From NCBI RefSeq assembly GCF_003991155.1, contig NZ_CP031293.1: a stretch of DNA of 64,000 bases. One strand, given 5' to 3'. The notes under the pieces are model-generated. The model saw only the letters and a program-made list of their open reading frames with translations, was not told where the DNA came from and searched no databases. Below, piece by piece: positions 43,002 through 61,197 of the stretch (position 1 is its first letter; every line of letters starts with the position of its first letter). Both the position numbers and the translations under genes were made by a program. The DNA is from Escherichia coli. GTDB taxonomy: Bacteria > Pseudomonadota > Gammaproteobacteria > Enterobacterales > Enterobacteriaceae.

Positions 43002-43613
43002 CTATTTTTGTTTATATAAATCGTAGGAACTTAATTTTTTAGATTTCTCATAGGCATTTTCAATGTATAAAGATACATCTGCTAAAAATCGGTCTTCTTC
43101 TATCAATGAAATATAAGAACCAGTCAATTGATCATATGATTTGCACTCAGGGCAACAATATTTATCTTCTGAAGTTAAATTAAACCTATTATTATTAATA
43201 ATGTCATATAGTTCAGTTGTGTCAATAGTTCTTGATGAACATCCATCAGGCTTGATTGAAGAAGATACTAACCAGTCATAGCTATTATTAACCTTCATTA
43301 TCACACCAACAATGCCATTAGTTCGGGAAGTGGTTCCTCCTCTCTTGTATTCTTTCAATGCATATTCAATTTCCCAGTCAATCCATTTACTTTTAATCAT
43401 ATTCGGGGAAATAATAACGATTAAAACAGATGTCCCGAAAATCATATTTTTAAGATTGTTCTTTATATTATCTACTGTTGTATTACTTATATCAGGAGAC
43501 TCCGATGTTTCCCCTTTATAGTAAACAGCATCATCACCTAATGCCTTGACAATTTTGTCTCTTAAATCCTGTGCTTCACTATATTTATATGATATGAATG
43601 TTTCATGAGCCAT
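43002..43613 (-). CDS. thsB: Thoeris ThsB, TIR-domain protein (203 aa)
   Basis: N-terminal FISYKYSEA... TIR-like beginning, about 200 aa, immediately downstream of SIR2-SLOG gene. Confidence 0.75.
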   Translation of the reverse strand: MAHETFISYKYSEAQDLRDKIVKALGDDAVYYKGETSESPDISNTTVDNIKNNLKNMIFGTSVLIVIISPNMIKSKWIDWEIEYALKEYKRGGTTSRTNGIVGVIMKVNNSYDWLVSSSIKPDGCSSRTIDTTELYDIINNNRFNLTSEDKYCCPECKSYDQLTGSYISLIEEDRFLADVSLYIENAYEKSKKLSSYDLYKQK

Positions 43614-43629
43614 AACTTCACCTAATATA

Positions 43630-45066
43630 TTATTTATTCAGTTTGTTTATGATTTTTATTACAACTTCTATTGTTTTTTTTACCGAAAAATCTTTTTCAG
43701 TAAGCTCAGACAAATCATTATATATCCATTCATTACTTCCATAATATTTCTTAGGATCTTGTGATATTTGTTCAAATATATATTTAGACATATACCCGGT
43801 ATTGGGTAAAGGAATTGGTACAAGGCCATGTTGAACAGCAATCTCAAACTCTCTAAATACTCCCCTAGCATTTACTATATCATTATTTTCCTCTTGTTTA
43901 TTTCCAAAAATAAACAATGCAATACCACCAAGAGGAATCATTCTCTGTCTATACTCCTCCCAAAGTTCTTGAATATCTTTCCCCTTACTGACAGTTTGTG
44001 GAAATGGTCTAACAATGAGCTGTTCTTCTGATAATTTATCTGGCCTACTATAAATTGCATCCAACGCACCATTTATCACAGAACTTCCGACGCCCCATCC
44101 AAATCCATTCACTATCCTATAATTATTCTTTATAATCTCATATGCTAATGTGTGAATAAAATCTAATGCTTTAGGTCTTTCAAGATCCCCATATTTTTCT
44201 GCACTACCAGAAATAAATATCGTTTTCTTTTTAAATGATTGCTCTATCTTAGCTAGAATTTTAGGGATGTCAGAATATTCATCTATTAATAATACTTGTA
44301 TACCAAATCTCTTGAGATCATCGATTCGCAGTTTTTGTTTTCTGATCTTATAATTTACTGTTTCTTCATCATCTAGGGAATTATTAGCCTCATTCTTCAT
44401 AAAGCAATAGTGTGTCCTCTTGTCCCCAGAATGAGTATACAAACGACTCAAAATGTAATCCAGATTTGGGTCGGTAAAACTAAACCCTATGAATAGAAAG
44501 GTTTTTGATATTAAATCTCCGCTAAGTGCGGTGATAAATGAAGCGTGTGTTCTGTAGTATTTTTCATACTGCTCTTTATATAAAATAGCCTTGGATGGGG
44601 ACGAAATATCACCATGCATTTTATATACTATCGCGTCTCGCTTAGGTCGTGTTGTATTTAAATCATCTATGTTTCTTTTTACATCTGCAATTTTGTAAAC
44701 TTTCCGCAGACTATCTTCAATTAAAGTGTCATAGTTTGTTGTCCAAAATGTCTTAATCGGTAAACGAGCAATTATATTATGAACCTCTGATGGCTCGGCT
44801 TGCTCAGAAAACTCTTCGATTATCTTCCTTGTGAGTTTTGTAGCCCCTTTCTTTTCATTAACATGAAATTGAGCAAGCGATATTAGATCGTCTTCTTTAT
44901 TAATGTCTAAACTAAGCTCTTCTGCTATATCGCTAAGTAATTCTTTCCAATCAACATAACCTTGACTTTTAGACATTCCTGCGCCAGAAAAAATAGCAGC
45001 ACAATCATTTTCAAGATCTTTAACAAAATCTTTTATGAAAACTTCAATTTCATTACTAAACGTCAT
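43630..45066 (-). CDS. thsA: Thoeris ThsA, SIR2-SLOG NADase effector (478 aa)
   Basis: N-terminal SIR2-like motifs (FSGAGMS, TTNYD, MHGD) and C-terminal SLOG-like glycine-rich region (FISGSAEKYG...GFGWGVGSSVINGALD); start set at MTFSNEIEV with GGAG RBS. Confidence 0.8.
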   Translation of the reverse strand: MTFSNEIEVFIKDFVKDLENDCAAIFSGAGMSKSQGYVDWKELLSDIAEELSLDINKEDDLISLAQFHVNEKKGATKLTRKIIEEFSEQAEPSEVHNIIARLPIKTFWTTNYDTLIEDSLRKVYKIADVKRNIDDLNTTRPKRDAIVYKMHGDISSPSKAILYKEQYEKYYRTHASFITALSGDLISKTFLFIGFSFTDPNLDYILSRLYTHSGDKRTHYCFMKNEANNSLDDEETVNYKIRKQKLRIDDLKRFGIQVLLIDEYSDIPKILAKIEQSFKKKTIFISGSAEKYGDLERPKALDFIHTLAYEIIKNNYRIVNGFGWGVGSSVINGALDAIYSRPDKLSEEQLIVRPFPQTVSKGKDIQELWEEYRQRMIPLGGIALFIFGNKQEENNDIVNARGVFREFEIAVQHGLVPIPLPNTGYMSKYIFEQISQDPKKYYGSNEWIYNDLSELTEKDFSVKKTIEVVIKIINKLNK

Positions 45067-52860: not shown

Positions 52861-52950
52861 TGGCGGAGAGAGGGGGATTTGAACCCCCGGTAGAGTTGCC
52901 CCTACTCCGGTTTTCGAGACCGGTCCGTTCAGCCGCTCCGGCATCTCTCC
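52861..52950 (-). tRNA. serU: tRNA-Ser (anticodon CGA)
   Basis: Reverse complement GGAGAGATGCCGGAGCGGCTGAACGGACCGGTCTCGAAAACCGG...GGTTCAAATCCCCCTCTCTCCGCCA has long variable arm and CGA anticodon. Confidence 0.92.
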
Positions 52951-53941: not shown

Positions 53942-54017
53942 TCCTCTGTAGTTCAGTCGGTAGAACGGCGGACTGTTAATCCGTATGTCACTGGTTCGAG
54001 TCCAGTCAGAGGAGCCA
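53942..54017 (+). tRNA. asnT: tRNA-Asn (anticodon GTT)
   Basis: TCCTCTGTAGTTCAGTCGGTAGAACGGCGGACTGTTAATCCGTATGTCACTGGTTCGAGTCCAGTCAGAGGAGCCA, 76 nt. Confidence 0.93.
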
Positions 54018-54183
54018 AATTTTAGTCTTGAGACATCTCTATAAGTCTCAGGATAGTTAAAAAACAAGAACTTATCTTTACCCGGTTGTCTCGCAAGAGG
54101 CTGCTGGGTTTCTTGACATCCATAGTTTTTAGGGGCCTAATCAGGGGCCTCACGGTTCGGTGAGCAAACGGAGCCCCCACGCT

Positions 54184-55446
54184 ATGGCATTAACAGACAC
54201 CGCTATTCGCAAGACTAAACCCTCTGACAAACCCTTCAAAATGACGGACAGTTCTGGACTGTACCTGTTGATCAAACCTAACGGCTCAAAACTCTGGTAT
54301 ATGAAGTACCGCATCGACGGCAAAGAGAAGAAACTGGCCTTTGGCCCCTACCCGGAGATCTCCCTGTTGCAGGCTCGCCGCCTGCGCGAAACAGCACGCA
54401 ATAACATTCATGCAGGCGTCGATCCGGCTGCGGTGAAGCAAACCGAGAAACAGAAGAGGAAAAACGGGCAGACGTTCAGCCAGATCGCCATCAACTGGCA
54501 TAGCGAGCATAAACGCTGGTCTGAGCATTACGCGAAAACGGTTATGCGCAGGCTGGAAATGTACGTTTTCCCGGATATCGGGGATCGCCTTATCGAGGAG
54601 ATCGAAACGGAGGATTTGTTATTCACGTTGCGCAAGGTAGAGAGTAAAGGCTTTCTGGAAATCACCGCGCGGCTGAAAAACTACGTCACCGATATCATGC
54701 ACTACGCGATGAAAAAGAAACTGCTCAAAGCGAACCCGGCGCTGTATCTGGACGGTGAGTTTGCCGCGCCAGAAACCAGTCACTACCCGGCCCTGTCGCT
54801 GGATAAGTTGCCTGAGCTTTTATCCCGGACAGAGAATTACTGCGGCAGGCTGCTGACGAAATACGCCCTCAAACTTTCGCTGCTGTTTTTCGTGCGCTCC
54901 AGCGAGCTACGTTTTGCCCGCTGGAGTGAAATCGACTGGCAGCAAAAACTGTGGGTGATCCCGGAAGAACGCGAGCAGATCGAAAACGTGCGCTTCTCTT
55001 ACCGGGGGGCGAAAATGAAAATCCAGCACATTGTGCCGCTGTCGGATCAGGCGATTGCGATACTGAAGCAGATCGAGGCCCTCTCCGGGCATCTGGCCTT
55101 TATTTTTCCCGGCGAATACGACCAGAACAAGTGCATGAGCGACAACACCGTCAACAAGGCGCTGCGCGTGATGGGTTACGACACCAAAAAGGATATCTGC
55201 GGGCATGGCTTCCGGGCAATGGCCTGTAGTGCGCTGAGCGAATCGGGATTATGGAGCAAAGAAGCCATTGAAAAGCAGATGAGCCACCAGGAAAGAAACA
55301 GCGTCCGTGCTGCCTATATTCACAAGGCTGAATATCTGGAGGAACGGATCGAGATGATGCAGTGGTGGTCAGATTATCTTGATGCAAACAGTGACGGGTA
55401 TGTCTCGGCTTACCAGTATGCCCGCCGCCTAAAACAGGCGTCGTAA
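54184..55446 (+). CDS. P4-like tyrosine integrase of asnT-associated island
   Basis: MALTDTAIRKTKPSDKPFKMTDSSGLYLLIKPNGSKLWYMKYR N-terminus typical of P4-family integrases; directly downstream of the tRNA 3' end. Confidence 0.9.
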   Translation: MALTDTAIRKTKPSDKPFKMTDSSGLYLLIKPNGSKLWYMKYRIDGKEKKLAFGPYPEISLLQARRLRETARNNIHAGVDPAAVKQTEKQKRKNGQTFSQIAINWHSEHKRWSEHYAKTVMRRLEMYVFPDIGDRLIEEIETEDLLFTLRKVESKGFLEITARLKNYVTDIMHYAMKKKLLKANPALYLDGEFAAPETSHYPALSLDKLPELLSRTENYCGRLLTKYALKLSLLFFVRSSELRFARWSEIDWQQKLWVIPEEREQIENVRFSYRGAKMKIQHIVPLSDQAIAILKQIEALSGHLAFIFPGEYDQNKCMSDNTVNKALRVMGYDTKKDICGHGFRAMACSALSESGLWSKEAIEKQMSHQERNSVRAAYIHKAEYLEERIEMMQWWSDYLDANSDGYVSAYQYARRLKQAS

Positions 55447-55569: not shown

Positions 55570-55743
55570 ATGAAAACGATAAAGACCTACATAACTGCCG
55601 ACGGGCGAGATCTGTATGCAGAGTTTTTTAAAGGGTTACGCAACCCCATCGCGAAGGCAACGATCGCTTCCCGGATCAACCGGATGGCTTCGGACAATTT
55701 TGGCGACCATAAGCCCTGCCGGGAAGGTGTCTGGGAACTGTAG
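55570..55743 (+). pseudogene. Addiction-module killer-type toxin gene (RelE/ParE superfamily), 3'-truncated by IS insertion
   Basis: MKTIKTYITADGRDLYAEFFKGLRNPIAKATIASRINRMASDNFGDHKPCREGVWEL then stop inside the IS left end. Confidence 0.6.
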
Positions 55744-55746
55744 TGG

Positions 55747-57709
<1,963 letters not shown>

Positions 57710-57988
57710 ATCTCGTTCTCCTTCATAACATTCCAGATTCCAGAGGTACTTCGTGCTGCTATAACGTACCCGACAACCGGAACACCGGGACAGACAATGG
57801 ATGCGGTATTCGGTTATAAAACGGTATATATTTAAATAGTGAACACCATGAGCGTAATATATTTATTTGATGAATGTATTGATGAAAGGAAAATTGCTTT
57901 TTAGCTATTATCGGCGGGTGTATAATTTAGTCCGTTTTTTTCAAATAAATAATCGCAAATAGCATCTGATGCCACTGAGGACGCAGGT

Positions 57989-58780
57989 ATGAATTTCAGA
58001 CCAGCAGTATATTTATGTGCAGCAACATTTTTACTGGCTGGCTGTGCGCCACGCTCCCCCATTGATGCGAAGAAAACGGGCGCATCCGCCAAAGAGAGCA
58101 GCATCAGCAAAAACACAACGGCACAACTGACCGATAAAGATATTTTTGGCAATGAAACCACGCTGGCAGTTTCTGAGGAAGATATTCAGGCAGCACTGGA
58201 AGGCGAAGCGTTCCGCGTGCCGCTGAATTCACCCGTGATTCTGGTTCAATCCGGTAGCCGCGCACCGGAGGCCATGATGCAGCAGGAAATGAGTAAATAT
58301 TATACCGTTGCCACATTCTCCGGTATCCCGGACAGACAAAAACCTGTGACCTGTAACAAAGACAAAAACAAAGATAAAAGCGAGAACCAGGATGTTGCTG
58401 TTGTTGAGAATATGAACTGGATGCAGGCACTGCGTTTTGTGGCTGCAAAAGGACATCAGAAATCGATTATTGTTTACCAGGATACGTTGCAGACAGGAAA
58501 ATATGACTCTGCGCTGAAATCAACAGTGTGGTCAGATTATAAAAATCAAAAACTAACTGACACAATGTCATTACGTTTTTTGGTTCGCTTCACTCTGGTG
58601 GATGTGGCAACTGGCGAGTGGGCTACCTGGTCACCTGTAAATTATGAGTCCAGAGTTATCTTCCCTCAGACTGAAAAAAAGGGTGCAATCACTACCGATG
58701 TGACAGAGCAACAAATCACCCAGCTTAAGCAGAAAACATACGCAGCAATGACCAGGGATCTGGTGAACCGCTATCAGTAA
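57989..58780 (+). CDS. Lipoprotein (263 aa)
   Basis: Signal/lipobox FLLAGCAP; Lys/Asp-rich central region. Confidence 0.6.
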
Positions 58781-58988
58781 GCAACATCCCCCTTACCTGC
58801 CGCTAATAAATAGTGGCGGCAGGCACTGGCACGAAAAACTCCCTGATGCTGACGATTATTAAACATCTTTCTGGTATTTTCTGTTGCAAACCATCCCATT
58901 CATAGCATATCAGTATCCATCATTTTAAATTTACAGTGATTGTATGCCTCAAAGCTAATCGCTTCCGATGATGGTGCCCGCAATAAAT

Positions 58989-59288
58989 TTAATCGGAATC
59001 GTCTTCTGTATCCTCCTCATATGAATCCCTGACGGTCCCCAGTTTTGTATTGCCATTGGCAGGCGTCCCATCTCCCATCAGAACGTCGATGTCATAGCCA
59101 GGATATTGTTTCTTTATATTGCGTTTGAACTCTGAGACCGTCGAATCATTTTTGGACATTTTCACCCGCTGATATTGTGGCATATCTTTTTTATCACCCC
59201 GGACGTCCTTACCATCGGGTGTTTTGAAGCGAACATCAAATCCCTGTACATCCCAGATTTTCTTTTCAACATTTTTTACTAATGGCAT
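58989..59288 (-). CDS. Hypothetical small protein (99 aa) downstream of hcp
   Basis: ORF with acidic C-terminal tail. Confidence 0.45.
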   Translation of the reverse strand: MPLVKNVEKKIWDVQGFDVRFKTPDGKDVRGDKKDMPQYQRVKMSKNDSTVSEFKRNIKKQYPGYDIDVLMGDGTPANGNTKLGTVRDSYEEDTEDDSD

Positions 59289-59340
59289 TTTTATTCTCTC
59301 TTCAGAAAATTACACTAAATCAAAAAAAGTATCGCTATTC

Positions 59341-59820
59341 TTAATAGAGTCTCTCTTCCCATAAGCTATATGCACTGGTTCCTGCAACACAGTGCTCCTG
59401 AGTAATACTTTCATAGGTGAATGATATGGCCTCTTCTGGTTGTCCCTGGCTATTGTTGACAGTGTGCGGCACAATATGCTTTATGCTGGCAATGCGGGCG
59501 TTAATCAGCTTCACTTTGAAATACAGCTCGTTAATACCAAAACGGTTGGTGCGGTAATACTCAAAATCACAGGTCAGACACTCATTTTCGCTGATAGCCT
59601 TACTCAACAAAGGGGAAGATTTATCCACGGGTTTCTGAATAATGAGCGCTTGATGATTCACGTTTTGTGCACGGGTTAATCCGTGGCTGAGTCCCAGCAC
59701 CATGATCTGATCCATATGCGCAATCTGCGCTTTGTTCCCAATAGATGCCAGTGATGAACAGCCTGCGGAGATCAGCCCCTGGAGATCGCCGTTCAGTGTC
59801 AGGTAAACAGGATTTGCCAT
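59341..59820 (-). CDS. hcp: Type VI secretion system tube protein Hcp (159 aa)
   Basis: MANPVYLTLNGDLQG...KPVDKSSPLL...ISFTYESITQEH pattern characteristic of the Hcp family. Confidence 0.8.
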   Translation of the reverse strand: MANPVYLTLNGDLQGLISAGCSSLASIGNKAQIAHMDQIMVLGLSHGLTRAQNVNHQALIIQKPVDKSSPLLSKAISENECLTCDFEYYRTNRFGINELYFKVKLINARIASIKHIVPHTVNNSQGQPEEAISFTYESITQEHCVAGTSAYSLWEERLY

Positions 59821-59841
59821 ATTAAGCTCCTTGGTCCGGGG

Positions 59842-61197
59842 TTATTTCCCGACCCCTTTATCAATAATTGCCGTTTCCGGTAGAGAGTGATTTTTCAGCA
59901 ACAACCAGCGACTTAACACGCCGTCCAGCCGCTCGTTAATCTGTTTTTCCAGTACGTCGGTATTCTGCCCCTGCGCACGGGCGTCCTGGTACTGCGTCAG
60001 CAGCGACTCAACGGGTGTTTCCTGCCCCAGCCCCCGCTCCGCCTGCCAGATAACATTTTTGATGTAGGAAAGGGTTACCCCCTCTTTCTCACGTTTCATC
60101 ACGAGGTCTGCAAAGGCATGTAAGTCCTGGCGGGCCTGTAACCAGCCGCGTAACTGTGGACTACTCTGCGCACGAGTTTTCAGCGTCTCATTCCACTGTG
60201 CGGTGGCCTGCTGCTGTTGCAGACTCTCCGGCCAGCGGCTGTCGGCGGTACGCGCCATCTGTAAGCCCGTATTCAGCGGCTGAACAGGTGAAGCATCAAG
60301 GAGTTGCTGTAGCCTGCGCTCATAGTTTTCCAGCTCAGGCGACACAAGCCAGACTGTCGCAGCGCCCTGCGCGGTATCGCTGACCTGGGTGAGTTGTTGC
60401 TGCATGGGAGAGACCAGCCACCACCAGAGAGCGGCGGCAACAGCCCCGGAGCAGAGAACACCCGCGATAAAACCTTTCACCGCACTGCCCTGCTTTGCCA
60501 CACTGGTCGGTGGCGTACTGTCAGCCAGGCTGCGCACCTCCACCTTCATCTCCGGCAGTTCAGGCAGCGGCGGCATCACCGTTTCGGTTGCTGGCGTAAT
60601 ACCGTTTTCCGGGGCATAAATCAGCGTTCTGACCGTGGTCTGTGCGGTGTGTTCAACGCTGCTTTTCGGCTGCGGCTCAAGTCGTTTACGCGTGTTCTGA
60701 ACAAAATAAAGCAGGTTTTCCACGCGCGGCTGGCGCTTCAGTTCCACCTGCTGGAGCTTGTCACAGATAAGCTGTAGTGCCCGTTCCGTGCGATATAACA
60801 GAGGCAGGTCAGCCTCCACAAAGGATATCTGCTGGCGCAGGATATTCCCGGTGCGGGTGTTGAACCAGTCCAGCATCTCGGTCCGCGCCGGGCCGCCCTG
60901 CGGCCAGAAGTTATCCCACTCGTGAGTGACCATCGCCGCCAGCAATTCCGCCCCTTCGCAGAATCCCGCCAGCCCCTGTGTCCGGGTCCGGGCCAGCGTG
61001 TAGTAGGTGGCGGTATGCAAATCCACCCCGTTGGCCTTAAATATCGCCAGCGCCAGCGACTCCACCAGTTTCCAGTTCAGCTCCGGCTGCGACGGGTGGC
61101 TGGCCTTGTTGATTTCCTCGCGGATGGCGCTGAACTCTGGCAGGCCACGCGGGTCACTGCCGGTAACGATAGTTTGTGTCAGTACGTTATTGCTCAT
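59842..61197 (-). CDS. Type VI secretion TssA/VasL-family protein (ImpA N-terminal domain with internal TM segment)
   Basis: N-terminal ImpA-like region (DPRGLPEFSAIREEINK...NWKLV...LLAAMVTHEWDNFWPQ), hydrophobic segment FIAGVLCSGAVAAALWWWLV; start set at MSNNVLTQ with GAGGAG RBS just after tssM stop. Confidence 0.7.
   Translation of the reverse strand: MSNNVLTQTIVTGSDPRGLPEFSAIREEINKASHPSQPELNWKLVESLALAIFKANGVDLHTATYYTLARTRTQGLAGFCEGAELLAAMVTHEWDNFWPQGGPARTEMLDWFNTRTGNILRQQISFVEADLPLLYRTERALQLICDKLQQVELKRQPRVENLLYFVQNTRKRLEPQPKSSVEHTAQTTVRTLIYAPENGITPATETVMPPLPELPEMKVEVRSLADSTPPTSVAKQGSAVKGFIAGVLCSGAVAAALWWWLVSPMQQQLTQVSDTAQGAATVWLVSPELENYERRLQQLLDASPVQPLNTGLQMARTADSRWPESLQQQQATAQWNETLKTRAQSSPQLRGWLQARQDLHAFADLVMKREKEGVTLSYIKNVIWQAERGLGQETPVESLLTQYQDARAQGQNTDVLEKQINERLDGVLSRWLLLKNHSLPETAIIDKGVGK

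Follow-up and report, generated by a model that had tools for sequence, protein, structure and literature searches.

A YafT-family lipoprotein and a phage-related 99-residue protein beside hcp in an Escherichia coli type VI secretion island

The window analysed here is a 64,000-nucleotide stretch of an Escherichia coli chromosome (contig NZ_CP031293.1) that contains an i1-type type VI secretion system (T6SS) island integrated at tRNA-Asn. Two genes near hcp in this island are the subject of this study: a plus-strand gene encoding a 263-residue lipoprotein and a minus-strand gene encoding a 99-residue protein. Sequence comparison assigns both products, as new members, to existing but uncharacterized families, the lipoprotein to YafT (PF25851) and the 99-residue protein to the phage family phrog_10601. 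The explanation we favour, with somewhat better than even confidence, is that the two genes have different origins, neither of them being an effector or immunity gene of the classical type; the YafT-like lipoprotein would be an island-borne envelope factor and the 99-residue protein a phage-derived passenger. A sequence-only reading had proposed both proteins as candidate T6SS cargo or immunity factors on the premise that genes adjacent to hcp often play such roles. That interpretation is partly supported: the interval between hcp and the lipoprotein gene is a genuine exchange slot that holds effector-like genes in relatives, but neither of the two proteins fits the proposed roles well.

Both open reading frames are present where the sequence-only reading placed them (Table 1), and both are annotated in RefSeq as coding sequences for hypothetical proteins in the identical E. 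coli genomes. Among 5426 complete E. coli genomes, 28 contain the segment from 57700 to 59900 at 100% identity, and the exact 263- and 99-residue proteins each occur on more than 300 public contigs. This spread, with the substitution ratios of the lipoprotein family and the many relatives of the 99-residue protein given below, shows that neither is a chance reading frame. The two genes had been described as lying immediately downstream of hcp. This is correct for the 99-residue gene, which is on the hcp strand and starts 52 nt past the hcp stop codon, but the lipoprotein gene lies on the opposite strand and is convergent on the 99-residue gene, and it is therefore not transcriptionally downstream of hcp.

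The 263-residue protein is a lipoprotein, as originally read. It has a canonical lipobox (LLAG-C) at residues 15–19, and Cys19 (codon 58043–58045) is at least 90% conserved across an alignment of 55 diverse YafT relatives. The residue at position +2 of an E. coli lipoprotein sets its membrane destination (the Lol sorting rule), and alanine at this position predicts sorting to the outer membrane. The further claim that the lipoprotein belongs to no recognized family does not hold, since sequence similarity identifies it as a YafT paralogue and a member of PF25851. About 4000 E. coli genomes match its gene at ~81% nucleotide identity, at a gene annotated yafT or ‘lipoprotein YafT’, and full-length comparison of the protein with the YafT proteins of K-12 and an avian pathogenic E. 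coli (APEC) strain gives 76% identity. The PF25851 assignment, with the family name ‘YafT’, is precomputed on all 120 listed homologues. An all-against-library search recovered 183 YafT representatives, down to ~25–30% identity, nearly all of which are lipoproteins of ~250 residues. Scans of PADLOC and of local copies of Pfam and NCBIfam gave no match for the lipoprotein; the local Pfam copy apparently lacks the PF25851 model.

The closest point of comparison is YafT of E. coli (b0217), encoded beside aspV. The two proteins are alike in length, lipobox and C-terminus (...DLVNRYQ), and the genes occupy the same position, each coming first after a tRNA and converging on hcp–vasL–tssM. The window copy differs in being a second, diverged one, carried on a separate tRNA-Asn island found in the 28 genomes above, and in that an integrase, an IS3 element and a gene for a 242-residue protein stand between the tRNA and yafT. 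Eight E. coli records have two places that match YafT, compared with the 28 that carry the tRNA-Asn island, and most strains with this island seem to lack the aspV-linked copy or to carry one that is too diverged to be matched. The E. coli yafT alleles are strongly divergent, with a synonymous divergence (dS) of 0.65 between K-12 and an APEC strain.

The AlphaFold2 model of the lipoprotein, built from the 55-sequence alignment, has a mean predicted local distance difference test (pLDDT) score of 79, with values above 90 in the globular core. It consists of a disordered linker (residues ~20–45), an α/β domain resembling those of PelC and LptE (residues ~80–225), which contains a low-complexity loop rich in Lys, Asp and Asn (residues 113–142), and a C-terminal helix (residues 235–262). 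The globular domain is thus predicted to adopt a PelC/LptE/CsgG-like α/β fold, which is also that of TolB-N, LpoB, TraT and flagellar ring proteins. The resemblance is confined to the fold: sequence identity to these proteins is only 7–13%, there is no profile match, the K/D/N-rich loop and the long C-terminal helix are additional features, and the lipoprotein gene has no Pel, Lpt or curli context. A sequence-profile search of the PDB with the YafT family returned nothing significant. The mature protein has a mass of 27 kDa and an isoelectric point (pI) of 8.49. Pairwise ratios of nonsynonymous to synonymous substitution (dN/dS) within the family are 0.08–0.16, including comparisons of the copy from T6SS-less K-12 with copies from T6SS-positive strains, which points to purifying selection on the family.

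YafT is conserved as the first gene of i1-type T6SS islands in many Enterobacterales genera. A scan covering one genome per species gave 35 YafT loci. Almost all are in Enterobacterales genomes, and one consists of a 251-bp contig with the label Ursidibacter. T6SS genes, identified by tblastn with the island proteins, adjoin YafT in 26 of the 31 informative loci. The usual layout is YafT on the plus strand convergent on minus-strand (hcp)–vasL–tssM, and the classic E. coli aspV locus has the same arrangement as the window, in the order tRNA-Asp, yafT (+), hcp (−), vasL, tssM and tssA. Across genera, YafT adjoins T6SS clusters at 35–88% identity, whatever cargo the neighbouring slot holds. Phytobacter, Budvicia and a metagenomic contig retain the linkage with YafT proteins of 36–41% identity. 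The YafT gene of Buttiauxella izardii (35% identity) adjoins hcp–tssB–tssC at the opposite end of a cluster with a different arrangement (L052), and that of Atlantibacter is 7 kb away from hcp–tssBC. The islands that carry YafT follow tRNA-Asp, tRNA-Phe, tRNA-Ser(gga) or tRNA-Asn. Occurrence with T6SS islands at four tRNA sites argues that YafT moves together with its island and does not belong to the core genome around the insertion site.

The stretch from the hcp stop codon to the yafT stop codon is a real exchange slot, and the 99-residue gene is its sole content in the window. The most direct evidence comes from the closest relative with different contents (L095). Its nucleotide sequence matches the window at 96% identity beginning exactly at the hcp stop (59341), and at 88.6% over yafT as far as the yafT stop (58780). 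Between these points there is no similarity; the L095 slot holds genes for a 309-residue protein and a 61-residue membrane protein. Breakpoints that fall exactly at the two stop codons identify the hcp–yafT interval as a site of cassette exchange. The aspV locus is likewise unalignable across the interval and has no equivalent of the 99-residue gene.

In other species, the interval ranges from ~150 bp to 4 kb, and the long intervals found in other Enterobacterales carry genes on the hcp strand. The slot of Buttiauxella encodes a protein with PG_binding_1 and M23 peptidase domains followed by small exported proteins, and that of Lelliottia a glucosaminidase followed by a 127-residue exported protein. 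LysM-containing or unassigned proteins of 220–300 residues, again followed by small exported proteins, are found in Superficieibacter and Citrobacter youngae. Other species have a DUF4225 protein or 300-residue proteins of membrane-active appearance, followed by polytopic membrane proteins. Domain content and arrangement suggest that these are effector/immunity-like pairs; an NCBIfam scan of the slot cargo proteins gave no match. Effector/immunity cassettes downstream of hcp are a known arrangement, as in systems of the Tae4/Tai4 type, and the positional logic by which the 99-residue gene was connected with Hcp-linked cargo is sound in that the gene occupies a site of such exchange.

Traces of a slot cassette can also be recognized in K-12. 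When the locus of a K-12 derivative (L003, 3866–5633) is compared with a Citrobacter T6SS slot (L031, 1357–2747), K-12 ykfM is 94% identical to a 155-residue polytopic membrane protein of immunity-like character, and the yafU pseudogene matches the last 115 residues of the adjacent 302-residue effector-like protein at 95% identity. Judged by these identities, the K-12 segment yafT–ykfM–yafU' looks like the leftover end of a T6SS-1 island that was cut by an ISAs1 remnant.

The 99-residue protein (11.4 kDa, pI 5.2) is hydrophilic and has no signal peptide. The acidic tail noticed in the sequence-only reading is present as a C-terminal EEDTEDDSD and is the longest in the family alignment, in which short acidic tails are common. 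Sequence and profile searches yielded 68 and 755 relatives, respectively, nearly all of which are 92–97 residues long, 45–73% identical to the query and devoid of Pfam domains; a member-by-member Pfam scan gave only scattered chance matches. The relatives come from Pectobacterium, Dickeya, Pseudomonas, Aeromonas and Lysobacter, and further from Brevibacillus, Paenibacillus, Clostridium, Roseburia, Anaerovoracaceae, Bacteroides, Opitutaceae and Acidobacteria. The absence of a recognized family, claimed for this protein as well, is borne out in part: Pfam and NCBIfam give no match, but residues 6–92 match phrog_10601 (E 8.5e-9, a modest match), as do 45 of 48 members of the family. Structural relatives are found in Erwinia and Serratia jumbo phages. 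A sequence-profile search of the PDB with the family returned nothing significant, and no solved structure matched the fold of the protein.

Every genomic context of the family that was examined is a prophage or a mobile island. The gene follows the Q antiterminator in a Pseudomonas fragi prophage, lies in the nin region of a Pectobacterium prophage, is carried by a Brevibacillus prophage, and in Dickeya is part of a P4-like primase island that also carries an Imm63 gene. Relatives are encoded on 34 viral contigs in IMG/VR, with GC contents from 0.29 to 0.61, and in several of these the small and large terminase genes are directly downstream. Most often the family gene occupies the accessory hot spot that immediately precedes the genes for terminase or lysis. 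A tblastn search of INPHARED phages with the 99-residue protein gave no match at 1e-3; the PHROG, IMG/VR and prophage evidence is positive. None of the 46 family loci outside E. coli has T6SS genes within its flanks, and a homologue of the 99-residue gene is absent from all 48 other YafT loci. The window copy differs from its phage relatives in being chromosomal and located in a T6SS island, not in a prophage.

The family alignment contains seven invariant positions (E8, V51, G74, G79, L83, R87 and Y90) and a nearly invariant R30-G-D32 motif, and identity exceeds 45% across phages of Proteobacteria, Firmicutes, Bacteroidota, Verrucomicrobia and Acidobacteria. For a small accessory protein of phages, this degree of conservation is unusually high, and it may point to a target that is itself conserved universally. 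Some neighbours of the family gene are of types associated with defence and counter-defence. It lies beside an Acb2/Tad1-hairpin-like gene, between lysis and terminase genes (L010–L012, 7590–8291), near an AcrIF11-like ADP-ribosyltransferase gene in the Pectobacterium prophage (L009, 11014–11499), and directly upstream of a DUF4917/SIR2-like gene (L070, 5409–6425). The placement of the family in accessory or counter-defence hot spots is an anecdotal association.

The phage distribution of the family, the stand-alone nature of its members and the lack of toxin or immunity hallmarks make a phage-derived passenger the most likely identity for the 99-residue gene. On this view the slot would have acquired a phage ‘moron’ that is now expressed by read-through from hcp; its product would work within the cell that makes it, for instance on some conserved component of host or phage, and would not be fired by the T6SS. 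Several features weigh against this reading, as they would also suit a substrate that travels inside the Hcp lumen into target cells. The gene occupies the slot in which relatives hold effector-like genes, including those for the PG_binding–M23, glucosaminidase, LysM and DUF4225 proteins. It is probably co-transcribed with hcp, since a terminator scan and folding revealed no terminator-like hairpin in the 52 nt between them. An 11-kDa protein is small enough for the Hcp lumen, judging from known Hcp-carried effectors, and one structural neighbour in BFVD is labelled ‘putative toxin protein’, an unverified annotation. The proposed role as cargo or immunity protein is nevertheless sustained only as far as location and size are concerned. 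The protein has no toxin domain in Pfam, NCBIfam or PADLOC. No other open reading frame of at least 50 codons occurs on the hcp strand between 58781 and 59340, the 208 bp downstream of the gene are non-coding, and no adjacent immunity-like gene is present. The family shows no conserved neighbour that would form a toxin–antitoxin or effector–immunity pair with it. All 46 loci outside E. coli are free of T6SS genes, and many belong to phages of Gram-positive bacteria or Bacteroidota. We therefore regard delivery by Hcp as improbable.

A protective function for the 99-residue protein also has to be considered. The gene could be an orphan left behind after loss of an effector, encoding either immunity to a toxin domain of wide occurrence or a factor for anti-defence or superinfection, and phages would carry it for the same reason. 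A small, cytoplasmic, stand-alone product encoded in an effector/immunity slot is consistent with this idea, as are the Acb2/Tad1-hairpin-like, AcrIF11-like and DUF4917/SIR2-like genes near phage relatives and the Imm63 gene in the Dickeya island. However, the protein matches no known Imm or anti-defence family and no solved structure, identities of more than 50% across phyla are unusually high for immunity proteins, and the neighbourhood associations are anecdotal. In a typical layout, an immunity gene lies beside its effector in the same orientation, and the slot of the window island contains no effector-like gene. An orphan protective factor is unlikely on this evidence, and both it and an atypical Hcp substrate are less likely than a phage passenger.

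For the lipoprotein, the proposed roles can be addressed more directly. Its Sec/Lol export signal and mature mass of 27 kDa mean that it cannot be Hcp cargo, and its gene is on the strand opposite to hcp. It has no cognate effector, is oriented opposite to the cargo genes and is present whatever cargo the slot contains, which argues that it is not a cognate immunity protein either. Instead, YafT would leave the cytoplasm through Sec, receive its lipid anchor and be delivered by the Lol pathway to the inner leaflet of the outer membrane. Like PelC, LptE, CsgG, FlgP-type ring proteins and TraT, which share its predicted fold, it might there contribute to an envelope machine as an oligomeric module or as an adaptor. 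Most likely it would be an accessory or envelope-protecting factor brought by the T6SS island, and not a T6SS substrate. A more specific version, which we put forward tentatively and with limited confidence, is that YafT is an unrecognized accessory of the i1 T6SS of Enterobacterales, with a PelC/LptE fold and possibly ring-forming, that works with TssJLM or conditions the outer membrane at the firing site. In that case yafT, ykfM and yafU would be the last K-12 remnant of the T6SS-1 island.

Several observations weigh against a T6SS-related function for YafT. Distant PF25851 members (~30% identity) have unrelated neighbours, among them genes for VIT/VWA proteins with an ABC transporter, MoxR and PurS. 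YafT also occurs without nearby T6SS genes in several genomes, including K-12, in which it was kept after loss of the T6SS, and Citrobacter sedlakii, so that the linkage could reflect hitchhiking at the island border. The identities of YafT and TssM are only loosely coupled, as seen in C. youngae (L046), where they are 49% and 87%, respectively. In the searchable literature we found no functional study of YafT; the gene figures there only as a flank of the T6SS island, as the insertion point of a reporter in a region of low transcription and as a binding site of RpoS holoenzyme.

Two serious rivals follow from these points. YafT may be a general envelope lipoprotein at an ancestral island border, unrelated to T6SS function and co-inherited by linkage. 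The contexts of its distant relatives, its persistence after T6SS loss, its predicted independent promoter region and convergent orientation, and published genome comparisons that take yafT as a core flank all agree with this explanation. Simple hitchhiking should, however, erode over the distances involved, whereas the linkage has been held across genera, down to 35% identity, at four tRNA sites and even with the differently arranged B. izardii cluster. On balance we judge co-inheritance by linkage to be possible but on the unlikely side. The retention of YafT after T6SS loss would also be explained if it were an immunity-like shield of the envelope against attack by the T6SS of kin or against other envelope insults. 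In K-12 it was kept along with the immunity-like ykfM, its predicted location in the periplasm at the outer membrane would be suitable, and it evolves faster than TssM. These points are offset by the lack of a cognate effector beside it, by its orientation opposite to the cargo genes and its presence whichever cargo is in the slot, by the immunity-like genes that slot cassettes have of their own, and by dN/dS values of ~0.1 with no diversifying pattern. We consider a shielding role rather unlikely, and an island-borne envelope factor remains our preferred description of YafT.

Two known types of T6SS-associated envelope protein were compared with the lipoprotein and rejected as identities for it. 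It has no TssJ family match in NCBIfam or Pfam, and the island has a tssJ gene of its own. TslA and TagM1, which are periplasmic lipoproteins, resemble the lipoprotein in being exported or lipid-anchored accessories whose genes border a T6SS cluster and do not belong to its 13 core genes. TslA-like proteins of i4b systems contain a tetratricopeptide repeat (TPR) domain, have a pI above 8.7 and are encoded upstream of tssBC in the same direction (PMC9251886). Compared with these characteristics, the window lipoprotein shares only its lipoprotein nature; its predicted fold is PelC-like and not TPR, its mature pI is 8.49, and its gene is at the hcp/vasL end, on the opposite strand, of an i1 system.

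The features of the window around the two genes are listed in Table 1.

Table 1. Features at the tRNA-Asn island end of the window and beside it
Feature	Coordinates	Strand	Basis or remarks
tRNA-Ser	52861–52950	−	ARAGORN
mtfA			between tRNA-Ser and tRNA-Asn
tRNA-Asn (53942–54017) and P4-type tyrosine integrase; attachment end of the island	53942–55446	+	ARAGORN; Pfam Arm-DNA-bind_3, Phage_int_M, Phage_integrase
relE/parE fragment and IS3 element, on the integrase side of the 242-residue gene	55570–56960		RefSeq annotation
Gene for 242-residue hypothetical protein	56981–57709	−	divergent from the lipoprotein gene
Sigma-70-like promoter match	57882–57911	+	consensus scan, 9/12; within the AT-rich intergenic stretch (279 bp) that precedes the lipoprotein gene
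Gene for YafT-family (PF25851) lipoprotein, predicted to be sorted to the outer membrane, 263 residues	57989–58780	+	
Variable cassette slot, yafT stop to hcp stop	58781–59340		contains only the 99-residue gene
GC-rich stem-loop, 10 bp, no U-tract	58796–58823		between the convergent genes; −20.8 kcal/mol (+ strand), −25.1 kcal/mol (− strand)
Gene for 99-residue cytoplasmic protein	58989–59288	−	phrog_10601-related phage-borne family
hcp (tssD), 159 residues	59341–59820	−	Pfam T6SS_HCP 6.8e-19; TIGR03344 3e-57
vasL, 451 residues	59842–61197	−	ImpA_N and VasL domains; TagA-type TssA-like protein; Pfam, RefSeq
tssM, C-terminal part	61208–64000	−	continues past the window end; RefSeq annotation of identical locus L001

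The promoter match upstream of the lipoprotein gene is weak and is not in itself a sign of function. The stem-loop between the convergent genes has folding z-scores of −2.5 on the plus strand and −1.9 on the minus strand and was not called by the terminator scan; it is a possible bidirectional transcript end for the 99-residue and lipoprotein genes. Beyond the window, the cluster runs on in an identical record (NZ_CP029747) through tssA, vasI, tssH, tssL, tssK, tssJ, tagH, tssG, tssF, tssE, tssC and tssB, and the whole island from tssB to tssM is annotated in the identical E. coli chromosomes.

On the integrase side, a relE/parE-family toxin gene is cut off after 57 codons by the IS3-family element (55747–56960, minus strand). 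The 242-residue protein has no match in Pfam, NCBIfam or PADLOC; inspected by eye, its N-terminus resembles a small DNA-binding segment of the AlpA/excisionase type. Citrobacter sp. wls619 (L032, L044) has homologues of its gene, ~46–50% identical, on the upstream side of YafT, and a broken one occupies this place in Superficieibacter (L043). The aspV locus has no homologue, and the gene is a variable companion upstream of YafT that is present in some islands only. Farther away, RefSeq annotates a TIR-domain protein adjoining a SIR2-family protein, a Thoeris-like pair, at ~43002–45066 on the minus strand (coordinates carried over from L001 5303–7367 with an offset of 37699). The pair sits in a separate mobile element beside tRNA-Ser, together with MobQ relaxase, RepL and H-NS-like genes.

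In E. coli, yafT has usually been treated as a core-genome flank of the T6SS-1 island. Its recognition as an island gene linked to the i1 T6SS across genera makes YafT a candidate for an envelope accessory still missing from a machine that has been studied intensively. The hcp–yafT interval, as a precise site of cassette exchange, is useful for mining Hcp-linked effectors, and K-12 ykfM and yafU are explained as remnants of one slot cassette. The 99-residue gene shows no sign of encoding a T6SS toxin and points to a very conserved phage family that extends across phyla and may be worth study in itself.

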